Assembly (NCBI GenBank): GCA_963704165.1
Contig: CAVPHD010000005.1
Span: 224,001-288,000, forward strand
Direction: 5' to 3'
Source: an uncultured delta proteobacterium
GTDB lineage: Bacteria; Myxococcota_A; UBA9160; SZUA-336
DNA length: 64,000 nt
The position numbers were made by a program, and so were the translations under genes. Position 1 is the stretch's first letter; the number at the start of each line of letters is the position of its first letter. Shown here piece by piece: positions 17,180 to 31,741 of this stretch. The notes under the pieces were generated by a model that saw only the letters and a list, made by a program, of their open reading frames with translations, had not been told where the DNA came from and searched no databases.

Positions 17180-18405
17180 AGAAGAGCGAGTTCTTCCGCC
17201 GCGCGCGCACGGACCTTCCCGGTCCACTCGCGGGCTTGAGCGTTCTCGAGGCGACGACGACATGGGCCGGGCCGATGTGCGCATGCGTGCTCGCCGACTT
17301 CGGCGCCGATGTGATCAAGGTCGAGCTTCCGGGGGGTGAGGTCGCGAGACGGCTTCCGCCGACGCTGCCGGACGGCGAGCCGCCGCTCTCGTTCATGCAC
17401 GTGACCGCGAATCGAAACAAGCGCAGCCTGACACTCGATCTGCGCCGACCCGAGGGACGCGACGTCTTCCTCGCGTTGGCTGCGCGTGCGGACGTGGTGG
17501 TCGAGAACTTCCGCCCCGGAACGATGGCTGGATGGGGACTCGGCTACGAGCACGTGCGGACGGTTCGACCCGATACGGTGTACGTCTCGATCAGCGGATA
17601 CGGGCAGTTCGGTCGCGACAGCGAGCGCGCCGGGTACGACCCGATGGCGCAGGCCTCGAGTGGCTGGCTGTCGTTGAATGGCGAGCCGGACGGAGCGCCG
17701 GTGAAGGCACCGACCTTCATCGGCGACGACCTCGCGGGTCTGCACGGCGCGCTCGCGGCGATGGCCGCCCTTCGTCACCGTGATCGCACCGGTGAAGGAC
17801 AACACTGCGATGTGGCGTTGCAGGACGCGCTCCTCTTCCAGTCGAATGGCTACCCGATGCTCGCCGCGCTCGGCGTGCCGCTCCCGCGCATGGGCAGTCA
17901 GTTCGTAGTCGCGGCACCGGCGGGCGTGTACGCGTGCAGCGACGGATTCGTCATGCTCGGAGTCCTGCTCGATGCGCACTGGAGGACTCTCGCGGGCTTG
18001 CTCGGTCATCCCGAGCTGGCGACGCACGCCGACTACGCCACCACCATGGGCCGAGTCGCGCACCGCGCCGAGTTGAACGCCCTGGTCTCGGAGTGGGTCG
18101 CGGAGCTTCCGGTCGCGGACGTCGTTGCTCGCCTCGAGGTCGAGGGCCTTCCCGCATCACCCGTGCGCAGCTTCGCCGAGTCCGCAAGCGATCCGCACGT
18201 GCTCGAGCGCGACATGCTGCAGACGGTCGTGCTCGAGAACGGCCGACCGGCGCCCGTCGTCGGGCCGGCGACCAAGTTCTCTCGAACGCCGGTGCGCGTG
18301 CGTTCGGCTGCGCCGGCACTCGGAGCACACAACGACGAGATCCTGGCCGAGATCGGACTCGACGAGGCCGCGCGCGCGCGACTTCGCGACGACGGGATCG
18401 TCTAG
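17176..18405 (+). CDS. CaiB/BaiF family (class III) CoA transferase
   Basis: GPLAGLSVLE, ADFGADVIKVE, NRNKRS, ENFRPG, ISGYGQ, GYD; TTGA overlap with the upstream stop. Confidence 0.9.
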   Translation: MKKSEFFRRARTDLPGPLAGLSVLEATTTWAGPMCACVLADFGADVIKVELPGGEVARRLPPTLPDGEPPLSFMHVTANRNKRSLTLDLRRPEGRDVFLALAARADVVVENFRPGTMAGWGLGYEHVRTVRPDTVYVSISGYGQFGRDSERAGYDPMAQASSGWLSLNGEPDGAPVKAPTFIGDDLAGLHGALAAMAALRHRDRTGEGQHCDVALQDALLFQSNGYPMLAALGVPLPRMGSQFVVAAPAGVYACSDGFVMLGVLLDAHWRTLAGLLGHPELATHADYATTMGRVAHRAELNALVSEWVAELPVADVVARLEVEGLPASPVRSFAESASDPHVLERDMLQTVVLENGRPAPVVGPATKFSRTPVRVRSAAPALGAHNDEILAEIGLDEAARARLRDDGIV

Positions 18406-19199
18406 TCCCGCGCTCTCGTTCGGGTGAGGACGAGAGCCAACGCGGCGACACCAATCAGCGTCGTGGCCGGAGCCTCCGGCACGGCGACGATGGCGTCGAT
18501 CTCCGAGGCGTACGTGTCGTCCGCGGGCTGCCAGATCCGCACGTACTCGATCCAGGGCAGGTCGAAGTCCGCGAGGTCGATCCCGACGCCGCCGCCGGCA
18601 CCGGCGTACAGCGCCGCGATCTGCGCGGTGTCGAGCCCGACGAAGTCGGAGGCGTCGAGCGACGGATCGACCGGAAGCGTGAAGCGGGTCGGAATCGTTC
18701 CTCCCGCCGAGAACGGCCCCGTCGGGTCGCGATACGCGAGCGTCGGGAAGAGTGTGTCCGCGAAGATCCCGATGGCGTCGATCCAGAAGACGCCATCCTG
18801 ACTGAGCGAGATCCGCGCCGGCTCGCCGAAGACCACGCCGTCGGCGAGCCCGGTCTCGAAATCGATGCCGAGGAACGCGTTTCCGTAGATCAAGAGATCG
18901 ATCCCGAACGGATTTGCGGGATCGTCCTCGACGAGTCGGTCGAAGCGAACGATCAATTCGCCGCCGGCTCCGATCGCGACGACCTGCTCCGGGAGATAAG
19001 CTGCGTTGAACGGCGTGACGTCGCCGTCGTAGGGACCGTTCCCCGTCGAGCGCGCGGGCGCGCCGAGGGAGCTGAGCGGATCGTCCCACCCGAAGGGCAC
19101 GTTGCTGCCGGGCGTGTAGCTGACGACCTGCGTCGCGAACGACGAGGCGAACGCGGGATGCGCCAGTACGCAGAGCAATGAGAGGACGAGCATTCGCAT
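18402..19199 (-). CDS. Cobalamin-riboswitch-controlled PEP-CTERM-type surface protein, putative B12-binding
   Basis: Signal peptide MRMLVLSLLCVLAHPAFA; C-terminal VPEA, TM helix and basic tail (TRTRARD); AAAGGA RBS; lies downstream of the riboswitch. Confidence 0.8.
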   Translation of the reverse strand: MRMLVLSLLCVLAHPAFASSFATQVVSYTPGSNVPFGWDDPLSSLGAPARSTGNGPYDGDVTPFNAAYLPEQVVAIGAGGELIVRFDRLVEDDPANPFGIDLLIYGNAFLGIDFETGLADGVVFGEPARISLSQDGVFWIDAIGIFADTLFPTLAYRDPTGPFSAGGTIPTRFTLPVDPSLDASDFVGLDTAQIAALYAGAGGGVGIDLADFDLPWIEYVRIWQPADDTYASEIDAIVAVPEAPATTLIGVAALALVLTRTRARD

Positions 19200-19238
19200 G
19201 TGGATTCCTTTCTCGCGGCCGGAGAAGTTCATACCCAC

Positions 19239-19388
19239 GTGGAAGGCCGGTCTTCTGGCTCCCGGATCACTCTCACGCCGCGCCTTCCCAGGATCTCGCG
19301 ATCCCAGTGGCTTGCTCATGCGGCGCTCGTCCCCGGATACAGCGACGGGCTCGCGCCGGATTCCCACCGGCTTCCCGACACCTTCCAC
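19239..19388 (-). ncRNA. Cobalamin riboswitch (left-facing)
   Basis: Minus strand: GGGAAgccGGTGggAATCCGGC...CCC...CTGTA...GCCACTGGG...GGGAAGG...GAGCCAGAAGACCGGCC; closing pairing GTGGAAGG/CCTTCCAC. Confidence 0.9.
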
Positions 19389-19427
19389 GACTCTTGTCGG
19401 GCGAGTACTACGCCGTCGTCGACGGCG

Positions 19428-19450
19428 GGTCAAGCGTGTCGCGGTTGACA
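19428..19450. promoter_or_regulatory. Back-to-back sigma-70-like -35 hexamers for the divergent riboswitch leaders
   Basis: TTGACA (+, 19445-19450) and TTGACC (-, 19433-19428); the matching -10 elements are weak (GATAAC, TAGTAC). Confidence 0.45.
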
Positions 19451-19481
19451 CGCGAGCGCGGCGGGTGATAACGATTCGCCC

Positions 19482-19640
19482 ACTCGGTGTCCGCGATGCG
19501 GACCAATGAGGGAAGGCCGTGAGAATCGGCCGCGGTCCCGCCACTGTGATGGGGAAGTCAGACCGAACGAAGCCACTGGGGAATGCCCTGGGAAGGCTCG
19601 GATCCGACGCTCGACCCCTGAGCCAGGAGACCTGCCGAGT
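19482..19640 (+). ncRNA. Cobalamin riboswitch (right-facing)
   Basis: AGGGAAggccGTGAgAATcggcc...CCCGCCACTGTGA...GCCACTGGG...GGGAAGG...GAGCCAGGAGACCTGCC; closing pairing ACTCGG/CCGAGT. Confidence 0.92.
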
Positions 19641-19682
19641 TTTCGGGACGATCGTCCCGCTCTCCGCGGAGGGAGTCACTCG

Positions 19683-21776
19683 GTGCAGAAGAGTCACTGG
19701 CGAATCGCGTGTGCTCCGGCGCTCGCACTCCTATTAGCGACGGCTTCGCGCGCTCCGGCCGGTGAGCTGTCGGAATCTCCCGACGATCCGTCCGCCTTCA
19801 CCACGGTGATCGATGCACGCGCGTTCGACGAGCGGTTCGCGACCGTCGAGGAGGTTCTCGGTCAGGTTCCCGGCGTGCGCGTGCGCCGTTTCGGCGGGCT
19901 CGGTTCCTCGAGCACGGCCTCGATCCGAGGGTCGAAGTCGGAGCAGGTTCTCGTCCTGCTCGACGGTGTACGGCTGAACAGCGCGCAGCTCGGATCGGTG
20001 GACCTCTCGACGATTCCGCTTCGCCAGGTCGAGCGAATCGAGGTGATCCGCGGCGGTGGCTCCGCGCGCTACGGCAGTGACGCCGAGGGGGGTGTCATCG
20101 CGATCACGACGCGCAAGCCCGAGAGCGAGGCGCTCGGAGCCGACGCTTCGTTCAGTGCCGGATCCCAGTCGACGCTGGGCGGAGACCTCGCGATCTCCGG
20201 GGGCGGTGAGCGGGCACGCGGGCTCGTGACCTACTCGCGCCTGCGCAGCGAGAACGACTACCGCTTCGAGATCGAGCCACCTCCACGCGGTGGTGGCGGC
20301 CGTCCGGGCACGGGAAGCGCCGCGGGTGGTGCGGCGACGCACACGAGGCTCAATGCGGACTTCGTCGAGAATGCGGGGCTCATGCGCGGGTCGCTCGAGA
20401 CCGGCCGTCACTCCAGCCTCGACGCCACGCTCGACCTCTACGAGAAGGACGGTGGCGAGCCCGGTGGAACCTGGGGCAAGCCGGTCGTCGACGTTCCCGA
20501 CGACGTGGTCTCGTGCGTCACGGCCGACGAGTCGTACCGCCGCGGCGTCGGACGTCTGGCGTGGAGTCACTCGCGCGCATTCGGAGGCTCGCTCTCGATT
20601 GCCGGCGCGCTCCGTTCCGAGGACTCGGAGCTCGACGATCCGGGCGGCGCGTGCGGATTCGTGTCGCCGATCGTGACCGGCGGACGCGATCAGGCCCACT
20701 CGAGCGAATCCGAATCGTCTCTCGAGGCGCGCTGGGTTTCGGGTTCGAAGCTCTTCGGTCCGCTCGAGCTCGGCGCGCGTGCCGGGTCGGGCATCCGATA
20801 CGCACGTGTCGATGCGTCGGAGTCGGACGTTCACCGCCGCACGACGGTGTTGATCTCGATCCAGCCCGAGCTCGCGCTCTTCGATCGAGAGCTTCGGCTG
20901 TTCCCGGCGCTCGGCTTCGAGCGCGCGGACACGAGCGAAGGCGAGGCTCGCAGGTCGGCCTCCCAGCCGATGGTGCCGGTCTCGCCGCGCGACGAGAACG
21001 CGTGGTTGCCCTCGGTCGGCGCGATCTGGCAGGTGGCGCCGGGACTGCGCGCGAAGGCGAACTGGAAGCGCGTGCTTCGCCGTCCGACCTTCACGGATCT
21101 TTTCCATCCCGACTGGGGGTTCATCCGCGGAAACCCCGAGCTGCTCTCGGAGCGCGGCTGGAACGCGGACGTCGGATTCGAGCTCGCGGGTCGCGGCTCC
21201 GGACCCCTCGGAGATCTGCGACTCGAGGCGGACGTGTTCCAGCGTGAGCTCGACGAGGGAATCGAGTGGGTGCTGAACGTGAACAACGCGTACATGCCCT
21301 TGAATACCGGCCCGTCGCGCGCGCGCGGCGTCGAGGTCGGGCTCGGCGCGACGCTCTTCGAACGCCTGCAGATCGGCGCGTCCTACACCTACACCGACGC
21401 ACGCTATCTCGGTGGTGGCAGCGACGCCGCCTACGAGAGCGGCGTCGAGCGGATCTTCCCGCACGTTCCCGAGCACGCGTACTCGCTGAATGCCGCAGTC
21501 GACCTCGGCGCGCTCGAGCCTTGGACGGAGCTGCGCTACGAGAGCGAGGTCTCCTACCAGGTCGGGCGCGCGACACTCTCCGACGACGCGCTTCAGATCG
21601 ATGCCGGCGTGATCCTCCGGCCGGAGCGCATGCGCGGCCTCGCGTTCCTGCCGTCGGGCGTGACGCTCTCGGTCGAGGCTTCGAACCTGACGGGCGAGCA
21701 GCGCAGTGACTCCCTCGGGCAGCCCCTACCGAATCAGACGCTCTGGCTGGTTCGTGTTCGCGGTGCGACGAGATGA
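19683..21776 (+). CDS. TonB-dependent receptor, BtuB-like (cobalamin uptake)
   Basis: Plug motifs QVPGV, SIRGSKSEQVLVLLDGVRLN, VERIEVIRGGGSARYGSDAEGGVIAITT; RRPTFTDLF, GNPELLSERG; GTG start after GAGGGAG; directly downstream of the B12 riboswitch. Confidence 0.88.
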   Translation: MQKSHWRIACAPALALLLATASRAPAGELSESPDDPSAFTTVIDARAFDERFATVEEVLGQVPGVRVRRFGGLGSSSTASIRGSKSEQVLVLLDGVRLNSAQLGSVDLSTIPLRQVERIEVIRGGGSARYGSDAEGGVIAITTRKPESEALGADASFSAGSQSTLGGDLAISGGGERARGLVTYSRLRSENDYRFEIEPPPRGGGGRPGTGSAAGGAATHTRLNADFVENAGLMRGSLETGRHSSLDATLDLYEKDGGEPGGTWGKPVVDVPDDVVSCVTADESYRRGVGRLAWSHSRAFGGSLSIAGALRSEDSELDDPGGACGFVSPIVTGGRDQAHSSESESSLEARWVSGSKLFGPLELGARAGSGIRYARVDASESDVHRRTTVLISIQPELALFDRELRLFPALGFERADTSEGEARRSASQPMVPVSPRDENAWLPSVGAIWQVAPGLRAKANWKRVLRRPTFTDLFHPDWGFIRGNPELLSERGWNADVGFELAGRGSGPLGDLRLEADVFQRELDEGIEWVLNVNNAYMPLNTGPSRARGVEVGLGATLFERLQIGASYTYTDARYLGGGSDAAYESGVERIFPHVPEHAYSLNAAVDLGALEPWTELRYESEVSYQVGRATLSDDALQIDAGVILRPERMRGLAFLPSGVTLSVEASNLTGEQRSDSLGQPLPNQTLWLVRVRGATR

Positions 21777-23545
21777 GTGCTGCAGCCGTCCTGCTCGCCG
21801 CGACGCTCAGCGTCGGCTCGGCCTCGACCGACACGCTGCTCGTCGATGCGTTCGCGCCCCCGGCACTGGAGTCACACCCGACCGACGCCGACCGCGCGTT
21901 CGTCGCCGCGTCGAGCAATGGCCCGGGCGTCTTCGAGCTGCGGATCGCGCCGGGGCAGTCGCTCGCCTACGTGGGCGCGTCGTATCTGCTCCCGGGGAAC
22001 CTGAACTGCACGGAGTCGGCGCCCTTCACGGTTCCGACGCTCGGAAACGTGACGCTCGAGCGCGGGACCGGCGCGAGCCGGGGCTGGATCACGACTTCGG
22101 GCTGCGAGCTCGCTTTGCCGTTCAACTGGGCGACCGGCGCCGGATGGCCGTTGCTCTACTCGTCGCAGAGCCGCACGTCGGTTCCGACCCGGCACACGAT
22201 CGCAGGCGCCTTCACGCGCTATCAGAACGGCGGCGGCGGCGCCTCGATCAGCTCGTTCAAGACCAACTTCACGAGCGCGGCGCTTCGGATCGGGAGCCGG
22301 CTGGTGGTCGCGACCTCGAACATCCATCAGGCGGGGTCGAATCCGGTCTGGAACCCCGGCACGGTGCTCTTCTTCGCGATCGACGATTCCGGGCCGACGA
22401 CGACCGTCGCGCCGGCGAGCCCGTTCTTCGCGATCACCTCGGAGCCGAACCCGGTCGCGCTGACCGAGCTCCCCGGTGGGCGCGTTGCGGTGACCAACGC
22501 GGGGATCTTCGATGCCGGCTTTCCTCCGCAGCTCACCGGCCGGGGCAGCATCGACGTGCTCGACGCGCAGACAGGACTCTTCGTCGGCTCGATTCCACTC
22601 GGAGCCGGCAATCCGGCGGGCCGTGGGCTCGCGCTCGATCCGACGAGTTCGGTCGCGGTCGCGGGTTCTGCGACGTTGCGCCAGCTGGTCGCGATCGACA
22701 TTCGCGGCATCGCGGCGCTTTCGACGGTCGCGGTCGATGCGCGCCTGCAGCGACCGTCGTGCAATGACGGCACGCCCGCGACCGCCGGGGGCGTCCCGTG
22801 TCTGCGTGAACGGGTGATCCGCGACGGCGCGAATCCGATCGTACTCCCGCCGCCACCGGGATCGAGCGGTCTCTACTCGTACGTCTCGCAGGTGCGCTTC
22901 GGCGCCTCGGGGGACTTCCTCGCCGCCACGTCGTACAACGACGGAGGCCTCGCGCTGCTCGCCTTCGACCCCCGGAACCTCTCGACGCCGCACCCGCTGC
23001 TCGCGTCGCGTTTCGGTGTAGCCCAGACGCTCGCCGCCACGGGCCCCGCCGGCGTGATCGGCGAGGAGTGCTGTCCGGGTCCGATGATCCTGCACGCGAA
23101 CAGCGGGGGAGGACTCGCTGGCGCGGATCTCCTGCTCGCGACCGCGAGCCCCAACGGCATCGTCGTTCGCGGGCACCTCGCCGGAGCCGTCACGTCCGCG
23201 ACCGGTGATCACGATGGCGACGGCGTCGAGGACGCGCTCGACGACTGCCCGGTCACTTCGAACGCCGCACAGACCGACTCGGGTGGACTCGCGACCCCGG
23301 TCCCCGATGGAATCGGCGACGCGTGTCAGTGCGGCGACTCGAGCGGCAACGGCATCGTCGATCTCGCGGACGTGGGCGCGCTGCGCTCGTTCCTGGCCGG
23401 CTCTCTGGGCGCGCTTCCCGCGCCGGAGAAGTGCGACGTCGGAGGCAGCATCGGCTGCGATCTCGAGGACTTCGTCCGGCTGAGTCGGGCGCTCGGGGGA
23501 CTCGCGCCCGGGATCGCGCATGTCTGCGGGCCGTTTCTCCCGTAA
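21773..23545 (+). CDS. Secreted beta-propeller-like protein with C-terminal TSP3-type repeat and dockerin-like domain
   Basis: Hydrophobic N-terminus; YncE-like NPVALTE...VAVTNAG...GSIDVLDAQT; DHDGDGVEDALDDCP...DGIGDAC; CGDSSGNGIVDLADV; ATGA overlap with the receptor gene. Confidence 0.65.
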   Translation: MSAAAVLLAATLSVGSASTDTLLVDAFAPPALESHPTDADRAFVAASSNGPGVFELRIAPGQSLAYVGASYLLPGNLNCTESAPFTVPTLGNVTLERGTGASRGWITTSGCELALPFNWATGAGWPLLYSSQSRTSVPTRHTIAGAFTRYQNGGGGASISSFKTNFTSAALRIGSRLVVATSNIHQAGSNPVWNPGTVLFFAIDDSGPTTTVAPASPFFAITSEPNPVALTELPGGRVAVTNAGIFDAGFPPQLTGRGSIDVLDAQTGLFVGSIPLGAGNPAGRGLALDPTSSVAVAGSATLRQLVAIDIRGIAALSTVAVDARLQRPSCNDGTPATAGGVPCLRERVIRDGANPIVLPPPPGSSGLYSYVSQVRFGASGDFLAATSYNDGGLALLAFDPRNLSTPHPLLASRFGVAQTLAATGPAGVIGEECCPGPMILHANSGGGLAGADLLLATASPNGIVVRGHLAGAVTSATGDHDGDGVEDALDDCPVTSNAAQTDSGGLATPVPDGIGDACQCGDSSGNGIVDLADVGALRSFLAGSLGALPAPEKCDVGGSIGCDLEDFVRLSRALGGLAPGIAHVCGPFLP

Positions 23546-28342: not shown

Positions 28343-28957
28343 TCAGCGCGCGAGCTCGCCGAGTCGCTTCTGGATCCAACGCCGATACAGCTCGGCGGGA
28401 TGTGCGCCGGTGATCGCGGTATCCGTGCCGGCCATCTGCACGGCCGGAACTCCGCCCACGCCGAGCTCGACGGCCTGGTTGTGCTCCTCGCTCACCTGCT
28501 GGAGCAACGCGGGATCCGCCGCGCGCGCGAACTCCCGCTCCGGCAGGCCCGACTCGAGCCAGATCGCACGCAGCGTCGCCTCGTTCGAGATGTCGCGGTT
28601 GCGCGCGAAGTAGGCGTGAAGGAGGGCTCCGTGAACGCGCTCGAAGGATTCGCGGCCGAGCGAAGCCGCAGCCTTCGCGACGAGGTGCGGCGGAAGGCTG
28701 TGAGACGGCGGCCCCTCGTCGCTCTGCCAGACCTGGAATACCGCTTCCGGCTCCTCCTCCGACGCGCGGCGCCACGATTCGGTGTAGCGACGGAACTTCT
28801 CGAGGCTGCGGCCCGGCTCGGGATGCGGGCGGAGCAGAAAGCTCTTCCACCGCAGCTCGATCGCGTCGCCGAACTCGCTCTCGATCTCTCGCAGCCGGAC
28901 CGCCGCGACGTTGCACCATGGTCAGAGGTAGTCGGACCAGACGTTCAGAACGACCAT
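28343..28957 (-). CDS. DsbA/FrnE family thiol-disulfide oxidoreductase, predicted selenoprotein (UPWC)
   Basis: Manual translation MVVLNVWSDYL-TGA-PWCNVAAVRL...LRWKSFLLRP...LLHAYF...RDIS...GVGGVPAV...ITGA; TGA at 28924-28922 sits at the first Cys of CPWC; 204 aa with read-through. Confidence 0.85.
28889..28908 (-). promoter_or_regulatory. Putative bacterial SECIS hairpin
   Basis: UCGCGGC-GGUCCG-GCUGCGA: 7-bp stem with a G-first apical loop 20 nt after the in-frame UGA. Confidence 0.65.
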
Positions 28958-28987
28958 GCTCGCGAGCCTAGCACGTGCCCGGCGGGT

Positions 28988-30052
28988 TCATTCCTTCGGC
29001 AACAGGGCTTCGAAGCGCGCCTTCTCGGTGGCCTTCAGGTAGGCGTCGTGCGGGGTGACGCGCTTGCTCTGCACGAGCTCGAAGAGCGCGTCGTCCATCA
29101 GCTGCATGCCGTCCTGTTTGCCCTGCTGGATGAACGAGCCGAGCATCGAGACGTTCGCCTCGCGGATGATGTTCGGCAGCGCCTTCGTCTTCAGCATGAT
29201 CTCGTTCGCGGGGACGCGATCCTTGCCGTCGGCGGCGGGCAGCAGTAGCTGCGAGACGACGGCGGCCAGGGAGTCGGCGAGCGAGAGGCGCGCTTGCGCC
29301 TGCTCGTCGGCGGGAAACGTGTCGATGATGCGGTCGATCGTCTTGGGGGCGCTGTTCGTGTGCAGCGTTCCGAAGACGAGCAGGCCCATTTCGGCTGCGG
29401 TCAACGCCAGTGAGATCGTCTCGTAGTCGCGCATCTCGCCGACGAGGACCACGTCGGCGTCCTGGCGGATCGCGGCGCGAAGACCCGGGCCGAAGCCCTT
29501 CGTGTGCGAGCCGATCTCGCGATGCGAGAAGATGCTCTTCTGGTTCTGGTGCACGAACTCGATCGGCTCCTCGAGCGTGAGGATGTGTCTCGAGCGGGTG
29601 CGGTTGATTCGATCGATGATGGCTGCCAGCGTCGTCGACTTCCCCGAGCCCGTCGGTCCGGTCACGACGACCAGGCCCTTGCGGAGCTCGGCGAGCGACT
29701 CGATCGCCTTCGGCAGCTTAAGATCCTCGAGCGGGACGATCTTCTCGGGGATCATTCGGAGAACGGCCCCCGCGCCGCGCTCCTGCACGAAGAAGTTCGC
29801 GCGAAAGCGCGCCACGCTCTCGAGCCCATAGGCGAAGTCGAGGTCGTGGCATTCCGTGTAGCTGGCCCACTGCGCTTCGGTCGTGATCTCGCGCATCAGC
29901 TTGCGCAGGCCCGCGTCGTCGAGTGGCGTCGCCCCTGCGACCGGACGCAGCTCGCCGTTCACGCGCACGCGAGGATCGATCCCCGCGGCCAGATGCAGGT
30001 CGGACCCGCCGTGCTGCTTCAAGTACCGAAGAAGGTCGTCGATCTGCGCCAA
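28988..30052 (-). CDS. pilT: Type IV pilus retraction ATPase PilT
   Basis: SDLHL, GPTGSGKSTT, LEEPIE, LVGEMRD, GTLHT, GMQLMD. Confidence 0.92.
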   Translation of the reverse strand: MAQIDDLLRYLKQHGGSDLHLAAGIDPRVRVNGELRPVAGATPLDDAGLRKLMREITTEAQWASYTECHDLDFAYGLESVARFRANFFVQERGAGAVLRMIPEKIVPLEDLKLPKAIESLAELRKGLVVVTGPTGSGKSTTLAAIIDRINRTRSRHILTLEEPIEFVHQNQKSIFSHREIGSHTKGFGPGLRAAIRQDADVVLVGEMRDYETISLALTAAEMGLLVFGTLHTNSAPKTIDRIIDTFPADEQAQARLSLADSLAAVVSQLLLPAADGKDRVPANEIMLKTKALPNIIREANVSMLGSFIQQGKQDGMQLMDDALFELVQSKRVTPHDAYLKATEKARFEALLPKE

Positions 30053-30068: not shown

Positions 30069-31565
30069 CTACGTGCTCGGGATCAGTTTCGGATCGTCGG
30101 CGTGCAGAAGGGCGTCTTCGCGCGTCACGTCTCCCGACTTCACGAGCTGCATCAGCGACGTGTCGAGCAGGTTCATTCCCTGAGCGCTGCCCGTCTGCAT
30201 CATCGATCGGATCTGGATCGTTTCGTTCTTCCGGATCAGATTTCCGACGGCGCGGTTCATGGTCAGAACCTCGACCGCAGGGGTCATGCCCTTTCCATTG
30301 GCGCGCGGCAGCAGGCGCTGCGAGACGACCGCGCGCAGCGACTCCGAGAGCATCGCGCGGGCCTGTTCCTGTTGGTCGGGCGGGAACGATCCGATCATCC
30401 GATTCACGGTGCGCAGCGCGTTGTCGGTGTGCAGCGTCGCGAGCACGAGGTGCCCGGTCTCCGCGGCGGTCATGGCGAGCGAGATCGTCTCGCGGTCACG
30501 CAACTCCCCGATCACGATCACGTCGGGATCTTCGCGGAGTGCAGCTCGAAGCGCGCGCGCGAAGGACTCGGTGTGCCGCTTCACGTGGCGCTGATTCACG
30601 ATGCAGCGCTTCGAGGGGTGGAGGTACTCGATCGGGTCCTCGACCGTCAGGATGTGCTCGGCGCGCTCCTCGTTGATCAGATTCACGAGCGCGGCCATCG
30701 TCGAGGACTTCCCGCACGCCGAAGGACCGGTGATCAGCACCATGCCTTGGTGGAAGTTCACGAACTTCGCGAACGCCGACGGCAGCCGCAGATCCGCCAA
30801 CGTCGGCGGTTGGAGGGAGATGCGCCGCAGGGTCGCATCGAGCCCGCGGAGCTGGCGATAGACGTTCAAGCGGAAACGCGCGAGACCCTTGACGGTGTAG
30901 CTGAGGTCGATCTCGCCGTCGGACTCGAGTACCGCGCGCTCGTCCGCCGACAGAATCGGAAGGATCAGTCGCTCCGCATCGGCCTGCGTGACCTTCGTGT
31001 CGGGCACCTCACACAACGCGCCTCGCACTCGCACGTGCATCGTCGCGCCGCTGTGCAGGTGAACGTCGCTCGCGCCCCGGCCGGCGGCTTCGATCAACAG
31101 CGTGTCGAGACCGCGATCGAGAGCAATCGCGCCCATCGCGCTCGTCGTCGGGTTCGGGCGCGCGGGAATCGGGCTCACCTCGCGTGCCGTCGCCGGGGCG
31201 GGGACGGCCTTCCGCGCATGCTCGCGGGCGGCCTGACCGTCCGTTTCCGTCCCGATCTCGACGGCGGGGCGCGCGACCGGCGGGGTCTGCGCAGCGACTC
31301 GAGGCTTCACCGCCGATTCGCCCGCGGCGGCCTTCTTCTGCTCGGCTCGCTCCAGGACGGCCTTCTGCAGATCGAGCGCCCGCTGGAGCTGCGTCGGGGA
31401 GAGAAATCCGAGCTCGACGAGCACTTCGCCCAACCGTTTCTCGACTCCACTGCGGCCCTGCTCGCGTGTCGCCTGCGCGAGCTGATCGACCGTGATCAGC
31501 TTCGCCGACAGCGCCACGCGGCCGAGCAGCTGGTCGGACGCGTCGGTGGTCGGGGAGTTGGGCAT
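30069..31565 (-). CDS. PilT/PilU family ATPase with N-terminal MshEN-like domain
   Basis: RLGEVLVELGFLSPTQLQRALDLQ; ASDVHL, GPSACGKSST, EDPIE, REDPDVIVIGELRD, AAETGHLVLATLHT. Confidence 0.9.
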   Translation of the reverse strand: MPNSPTTDASDQLLGRVALSAKLITVDQLAQATREQGRSGVEKRLGEVLVELGFLSPTQLQRALDLQKAVLERAEQKKAAAGESAVKPRVAAQTPPVARPAVEIGTETDGQAAREHARKAVPAPATAREVSPIPARPNPTTSAMGAIALDRGLDTLLIEAAGRGASDVHLHSGATMHVRVRGALCEVPDTKVTQADAERLILPILSADERAVLESDGEIDLSYTVKGLARFRLNVYRQLRGLDATLRRISLQPPTLADLRLPSAFAKFVNFHQGMVLITGPSACGKSSTMAALVNLINEERAEHILTVEDPIEYLHPSKRCIVNQRHVKRHTESFARALRAALREDPDVIVIGELRDRETISLAMTAAETGHLVLATLHTDNALRTVNRMIGSFPPDQQEQARAMLSESLRAVVSQRLLPRANGKGMTPAVEVLTMNRAVGNLIRKNETIQIRSMMQTGSAQGMNLLDTSLMQLVKSGDVTREDALLHADDPKLIPST

Positions 31566-31626
31566 GGGCGGCTGAGGTATCGGCAGCCGTTCGGTGCGTT
31601 GTGAGGGACGGGGGGCCTGCGATTGG

Positions 31627-31741
31627 ATGTGGCGAACACCCCACGATCCGACTCCAGGGTCGGGGCGAATGTGGCGAAAACCCTGCAGCGTGCAGCAGAT
31701 CGGCAAGCCAGCGCATTTAGATCAGATATTTCAACTAGTTA
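31627..31741. promoter_or_regulatory. Tandem activator-like sites plus IHF-like site in the divergent pilT / PEP-CTERM intergenic region
   Basis: ATGTGGCGAACACCC (31627) and ATGTGGCGAAAACCC (31669), 42 bp apart; TTTCAACTAGTTA (31729-31741) is one mismatch from WATCAAN4TTR. Confidence 0.5.

Follow-up and report, generated by a model that had tools for sequence, protein, structure and literature searches.

A predicted selenocysteine-containing FrnE/DsbA-like oxidoreductase in an uncultured Myxococcota-related bacterium

A gene with an in-frame TGA at its active site

We propose that the minus strand of the 64,000-nucleotide stretch of DNA analysed here (the window) encodes, at 28343..28957, a cytoplasmic FrnE/DsbA-like oxidoreductase in which the UGA at codon 12 is read as selenocysteine (Sec), guided by a downstream hairpin and by the Sec machinery of the genome. 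To this explanation as a whole we give a probability of about 0.93. Decoding of the UGA as Sec is in itself very probable, because the insertion machinery is present in the genome and the same UGA recurs in many relatives. The gene is likely to be real but of a kind that ORF callers easily miss.

The frame opens with the ATG at 28957, meets the TGA at codon 12 (28924-28922), continues for 192 sense codons and ends at a TGA stop (28345-28343), all on the minus strand. With the internal TGA written as U, the product is a protein of 204 residues carrying SDYL-U-PWC at residues 8-15 and GVGGVP at residues 166-171. The predicted Sec takes the first position of U-P-W-C. The second redox residue, Cys15 (28913..28915, minus strand), is invariant in all 40 rows of our alignment A1, as are G169, V170 and P171 (28445..28453, minus strand), which are predicted to form the cis-proline loop, the role that a GVP motif plays in the thioredoxin fold. 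A sequence-only reading of the window had described the start, the TGA in place of the first motif Cys, the 192 further sense codons and the GVP motif, all of which can be seen in the sequence, and had called the gene a hidden selenoprotein absent from the ORF track. The mechanical ORF list (at least 80 aa, positions 18000-40000) indeed has no entry in this frame, and the selenoprotein reading itself is supported by the sel genes, by the pairing of TGA with Cys codons in homologs and by the geometry of the hairpin.

Pairing of TGA and cysteine codons across homologs

Homologs were gathered from a genome scan, a class sample and a metagenome scan. One of the 205 loci was cut short, which left 204 that cover the motif, and 182 distinct homologs remained once 22 duplicates had been dropped; three distant partial matches (L045, L046 and L229) are excluded from every count. 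Codon 12 is TGA in 41 of the 182, TGC in 80 and TGT in 61, and no other codon occurs there, so that the TGA/Cys pairing for which the sequence-only reading had suggested looking is found without exception (41 TGA, 141 Cys, 0 other). No second internal stop was found in the 30 TGA loci examined. At least eight of the 120 listed database homologs, which are proteins only, start downstream of the motif, as would be expected if gene callers had cut the TGA forms.

The class sample shows how these forms are distributed relative to the Sec machinery. The gene occurs in 151 of its 201 genomes; in 26 a single TGA lies within the match, and in 24 this TGA is at codon 12. Four genomes with an internal TGA (G088, G138) or TAG (G079, G110) carry a Cys codon at position 12 and are not included among the Sec forms. 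The selA gene is present in 178 of the 201 genomes and in 23 of the 24 with a codon-12 TGA. The one exception (G200, 68% complete) has a TGA gene, no match to selA or tRNA-Sec, and a partial selB, under cut-off, at a contig end. However, selA is also found in 112 of the 127 gene-bearing genomes without a codon-12 TGA (codon 12 having been inspected in part of the 127), and thus Sec is not needed for the function of the family. Three selA-negative genomes were deduced by elimination from lists. All six TGA loci from the genome scan, which overlaps the class sample, lie in selA genomes.

The same association is seen within the genus, where the four TGA genes are all in selA genomes and the seven Cys genes are all in genomes where selA was not found, although kin are not independent and this pattern may amount to one event. 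Five of the seven Cys genomes are at least 90% complete, and in the four of the seven that were searched, neither selB nor tRNA-Sec gave a match over cut-off. A twelfth member of the genus has selA and no match to the gene.

Selenocysteine machinery and other predicted selenoproteins

The source genome (G000; 84% complete, 68% GC) contains selA, selB, selC and selD, the four genes whose presence the sequence-only reading had proposed as a check, and each exceeds its curated cut-off in profile searches: selA with 508.6 bits (cut-off 267.9), selB with 281.8 (242.25), selD with 334.3 (125) and the tRNA-Sec gene selC, anticodon TCA, with 72.9 (47). The selD gene has one in-frame TGA of its own, at its Sec site G-G-U-A-R-K. 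A thioredoxin reductase gene, trxB, is also found.

A codon-model scan of the genome returned 195 TGA read-through candidates, of which 13, picked by eye, were scanned against family models. Four proved to be ordinary two-gene junctions and were dropped, and nine match selenoprotein-type families. These nine further predicted selenoproteins are SelD, a TxxU peroxiredoxin, two AhpC/TSA proteins with UxxC, two AhpD-related proteins with CFYU, an ArsC-related protein, a protein with WAxxUGC and a SelW-like protein (loci L230, L231, L233-L238 and L240; sites C3:422180(-), C9:338700(-), C2:119981(-), C7:167372(+), C5:172728(+), C1:79703(+), C8:16655(+), C5:23912(-) and C3:189279(+)). Five exceed an NCBIfam cut-off and the others exceed the Pfam AhpC-TSA cut-off; SelD aside, all eight have the in-frame TGA at a redox-motif position in a selenoprotein-type family. 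Eight of the nine pass the rule for bacterial SECIS elements (bSECIS) as implemented in our own script, and SelW fails it. The read-through scan yielded no formate dehydrogenase. Counting the gene described here, the genome has at least ten predicted selenoproteins.

Elsewhere in the genome, at C4:403213-403765 on the plus strand, a 138-nt tandem repeat of about five copies gives the same TGA-containing reading in each copy. A repeat protein read on the wrong strand or in the wrong frame is the probable source of this reading.

A conserved hairpin downstream of the TGA

The predicted bacterial SECIS hairpin lies at 28889..28908 (minus strand) and has a stem of 7 bp, one of them a G-U pair, closed by the loop GGUCCG at 28901-28896. 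It folds as the sequence-only reading had claimed, with one correction: the 20 nt given there as its distance from the UGA is the distance to the loop, and the stem already starts after 13 nt. The published bSECIS model, as set out in the legend to Fig. 2 of PMC13188914, has a loop of 3-9 nt, a stem of 4-16 bp, a G in the first two loop positions, a spacing of 16-37 nt and a minimum free energy of -7.5 kcal/mol or lower. With its GGUCCG loop, 7 bp, spacing of 20 and -11.6 kcal/mol, the hairpin has this geometry when scored with our own script in place of bSECISearch. The script is unspecific, however: applied to 250 random TGA sites of this 68% GC genome it passes 121, and the hairpin by itself is therefore no more than would be expected by chance. 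Nor is its stability significant against dinucleotide shuffles (z +0.14 to +1.97). The rule is passed by 32 of the 41 TGA homologs, while 79 of the 141 Cys homologs pass somewhere, and the nine TGA homologs that fail belong mostly to a distant clade.

Support for the predicted element is found instead in the conservation of its position and pairing among TGA homologs, which exceeds chance. We defined its register as five fixed pairs, in which positions 16-20 downstream of the UGA pair with positions 31-27, together with G-U at 22-23, and set a threshold of at least four pairs. The register is kept in 27 of 41 TGA genes versus 7 of 141 Cys genes, a contrast to be read with the caution that it was defined from TGA genes, which it favours, and that kin are not independent. 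Among genes that encode the same AAVRL peptide, synonymous codons preserve the stem in 23 of 25 TGA genes versus 2 of 14 Cys genes, and the mean pairing probability is 0.63 versus 0.07 (0.999 in the window).

The distant TGA clade (L038, L041-L043, L207, L211-L213 and L222) reads SDVL-U-PWC followed by AAVCLE or VAVCLE, with a third Cys, and sits beside a PNPOx-like gene. It is mostly without the hairpin of the other Sec forms, and may have a SECIS of another type or one that the rule misses.

Other readings of the TGA

If the TGA were a nonsense mutation or an assembly error, the gene would be a pseudogene. We consider this scarcely credible. Across many genomes, 41 of the 182 distinct homologs share this TGA, in each case at the codon for the catalytic Cys, where neither TAA nor TAG occurs, and its recurrence makes a lesion unlikely; moreover, the downstream frame is intact and the Sec machinery complete. 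What can be said for a lesion is that the hairpin alone is at chance level and that a word search of read runs found no reads of the source organism (the best run matched at most 0.08 of words), while four runs followed up yielded only contigs of relatives, mostly of less than 95% likeness, leaving the TGA unconfirmed from reads. Just as improbable is that an altered code or leaky suppression causes the UGA to be read as Cys or Trp. The residue is Cys in 141 of the 182 homologs, as that idea would have it, but TGA is an ordinary stop at the end of both this gene and the pilT gene, the sole tRNA found with a TCA anticodon is tRNA-Sec, tRNA-Trp has CCA, and selA and selD are present.

Genomic neighbourhood and promoter

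The gene sits directly downstream of a pilT pair on the same strand, as had been noted from the sequence: two PilT/PilU-family genes, scoring over the TIGR01420 cut-off, lie upstream, the nearer of which ends 30 nt before the ATG. This nearer gene (28988..30052, minus strand; TIGR01420, 425 bits, cut-off 319) encodes a PilT/PilU-family ATPase and is probably not a functional part of the system. Its adjacency carries little weight, because a PilT match is found in only 24 of the 86 loci with at least 1200 nt upstream, nearly all of them in the nearest lineage; the link is one of local synteny. Of 95 loci, 31 have a flavin reductase gene directly upstream of the homolog and about 30 an EthD-domain cluster (some rows off-frame); a bactofilin or a PNPOx-like gene is a rarer neighbour. 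Neighbours vary between lineages, and in the sister lineage another gene sits between PilT and the homolog.

The 30-nt spacer contains TG-n-TAGGCT, 7 nt before the ATG, which we predict to be an extended -10 box of the form TGnTAnnnT (28965..28973, minus strand). Similar boxes with 5-8 nt to the start are present in 36 of 181 homolog loci, and across the genome the distance from TGnTAnnnT to an ATG is most often 6-7 nt (36 of 283 sites versus 0-9 at other spacings). For TAnnnT boxes genome-wide, ATG follows after 6-7 nt in 167 and 114 of 5506 sites versus about 30-65 at most other spacings. These patterns suggest that the lineage may have many leaderless genes. Because the box lies 7 nt before the ATG, we infer that this gene is likely expressed as a leaderless mRNA from its own extended -10 promoter; a scan for sigma-70 promoters and terminators found none at the locus. 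In nine of ten close loci the TGA that ends pilT shares the frame of the selenoprotein ATG across a 30-nt spacer that has no stop but varies in sequence (28958-28990, minus strand, in the window), which probably reflects promoter spacing or shared descent.

The first PilT-family ATPase of the pair (30069-31706, minus strand) carries near its N-terminus a c-di-GMP-binding motif related to MshE (NF053729, 43.9 bits, cut-off 38), and its ATPase domain is preceded by a long linker. Farther off, the region at about 18400-23545 contains PEP-CTERM-like ORFs and an ORF (19506-21776) resembling a TonB-dependent receptor, flanked by non-coding stretches that look by eye like cobalamin riboswitches.

Family, fold and proposed function

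Residues 4-192 match the Pfam DSBA family (PF01323; E 3.5e-22, 79.6 bits, cut-off 25.6), while no NCBIfam model scored above its cut-off for the 204-residue protein. The genome has nine PF01323 matches, and this gene is the sole one with an in-frame TGA. Among PDB sequences, Deinococcus FrnE (E 2e-9) and Streptomyces SCO1869 match best. An AlphaFold (AF2) model built from the 40-row alignment A1, with U entered as C, has a mean pLDDT of 95.8, and its top Foldseek ranks are VP2116, FrnE, 2in3, YjbH, SCO1869 and DsbM (TM 0.71-0.83), followed by HCCA isomerase and kappa-GST. Pseudomonas aeruginosa DsbM, YjbH, VP2116, kappa-class GST and HCCA isomerase, with functions as given in PDB titles or commonly ascribed to them, share the fold at TM 0.64-0.83 and only 15-21% identity; among these and 2in3, a sequence match was found for VP2116 and 2in3 alone.

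An N-terminal export signal like that of the periplasmic DsbA oxidases is absent before the motif. There is no room for a signal peptide ahead of UPWC at residues 12-15, and a first strand that begins at residue 2 in the fold model also argues against one; the closest homologs share the same start Met. We would narrow the DsbA/FrnE assignment of the sequence-only reading to a FrnE-like cytoplasmic protein, as opposed to a periplasmic DsbA, since a signal peptide is missing. The FrnE subfamily is marked by a CP(W/F)C-type motif within a DsbA-like domain and by a predicted cytoplasmic location, and this combination is found here.

FrnE of Deinococcus radiodurans (DR_0659; PDB 5cp1, 5cnw and 5xwh) and the protein described here have in common an N-terminal D-x-x-C-P-W-C, a DsbA fold with a helical insert, a GVP loop and no signal peptide. 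They differ in that our protein has a predicted Sec for the first Cys, is only about 22-23% identical and is without the C-terminal CxxxxC. This tail is absent in all 168 near-full-length homologous genes, which is why we write FrnE-like and do not speak of a D. radiodurans-type FrnE. PMC8945050 describes the D. radiodurans protein as a cytoplasmic disulfide reductase/isomerase whose C-terminal CxxxxC is proposed to regenerate the active site, and mentions that some FrnE proteins are also without the tail.

By extension of the established bacterial pathway, SelB-GTP-Sec-tRNA would bind the G-U of the hairpin loop and insert Sec at codon 12; with selenium absent, the ribosome would stop after 11 residues. 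Thioredoxin-fold chemistry and the example of FrnE suggest that the Sec12 selenolate would attack a substrate disulfide and that Cys15 would resolve the intermediate, leaving a selenenyl-sulfide. Deinococcus FrnE has a C-terminal CxxxxC tail that is missing here, so a separate, outside reductant would be needed to regenerate the active site, and the thioredoxin reductase of the genome is one candidate. The protein is likely to repair or reduce cytoplasmic thiols that become oxidised during oxidative or metal stress. We hypothesize, as reasonably probable, that it acts through Sec12 and Cys15 as a FrnE-like cytoplasmic disulfide reductase/isomerase. We treat this activity as inferred because FrnE is only about 22-23% identical in sequence and the folds of kappa-GST/HCCA isomerase, DsbM and YjbH are about as close.

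That closeness of fold (DsbM at TM 0.75, YjbH at 0.79-0.81, HCCA isomerase and kappa-GST at 0.64-0.69) would also suit a selenoprotein with a DsbM-like or kappa-class GST-like job, such as glutathione-linked deglutathionylation or isomerisation, but the CPWC motif is identical to that of FrnE as given in PMC8945050. A selenoprotein that serves neighbouring flavin-dependent enzymes would fit the upstream flavin reductases and EthD-domain clusters, yet these neighbours differ from lineage to lineage, and the sole long forms found, three matches that join flavin reductase or luciferase-like sequence, enter off-frame-looking sequence and were set aside as frameshift artefacts. We regard these two alternatives, taken together, as unlikely, although they deserve consideration. 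Much less likely still is a protein that works solely with the PilT pair, either through co-transcription or as a fusion made by read-through of the in-frame pilT stop. The uninterrupted frame after that stop was found in nine of the ten closest loci with a pilT end, but the tenth is out of frame, and in eight of the nine in-frame loci no bSECIS-type hairpin follows the pilT stop. A PilT fusion was not among the three longer matches of 5243 candidates, a weak search in itself. Against co-transcription or partnership stand the likely promoter in the spacer, the scarcity of PilT (near the gene in 24 of 86 loci alone) and the gene that intervenes in the sister lineage.

Relation to known selenoproteins

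By its Pfam domain and UxxC motif, the gene is probably a further member of the known family "DsbA-like form 1", whose published representative is NIP15863.1. Table 1 of PMC13188914 defines this form by PF01323, UxxC and one Sec (COG2761) and lists it as predicted with high confidence; this 2026 review counts it among the predicted, not experimentally verified, families. The gene has the PF01323 domain, U12-P-W-C15 and one predicted Sec. Among the earlier surveys, PMC1088965 has nine sequences of DsbA-like selenoproteins, PMC2398784 has 63 of DsbA 1, and PMC1794560 records them in four genomes, including that of Anaeromyxobacter dehalogenans. The likeness to form 1, as these sources portray it, further extends to a hairpin of the bacterial SECIS type and to Sec forms scattered among commoner Cys homologs. 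A literature search by class name found no paper pairing UBA9160 with selenocysteine, although some members of the lineage may already be catalogued in the supplements of the cited papers.

No new family or mechanism is added by this gene. It does correct an annotation gap, since the ORF list has no entry for it, and it points to an uncultured Myxococcota-related lineage that uses Sec widely, with selA in 178 of 201 genomes and at least ten predicted selenoproteins in the source genome. With Sec and Cys orthologs available as matched sets, testing the family would be straightforward.

Evolution of Sec and Cys forms

On a tree of 169 rows, the Sec/Cys label needs 14 changes, of which at least six are forced by strong branches. 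A more careful tree of 28 rows was built with the Sec and SECIS columns removed; on it, AU tests reject a single clade both for the seven nearest Sec rows (p 0.00015) and for all ten Sec rows (p 0.012), the groups having been named after the first tree was seen. At 96/93, two Sec genes group with a Cys gene (L157) that is 82% identical to the gene in the window. A change from Sec to Cys would be the simpler direction both for L157 and for the genus branch in which no sel genes were found.

We tentatively put forward a broader hypothesis, whose chances we place a little below even. A leaderless mRNA with its UGA 33 nt from the 5' end would make this a selenium-gated gene; Sec and Cys would have been switched repeatedly, with a switch to Cys in the sel-lacking genus branch; and the hairpin would have decayed at synonymous sites. 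If this is true, the pairs of Sec and Cys orthologs at about 80% identity are a natural experiment on the benefit of Sec in a FrnE-type enzyme. An excess of TGT among the Cys codons at position 12 (61 of 141, versus 20 of 141 at codon 15) was considered as a relic of TGA and rejected, as it equals the proportion seen in the Cys-Pro context of the genome (168 of 392, p 0.93).
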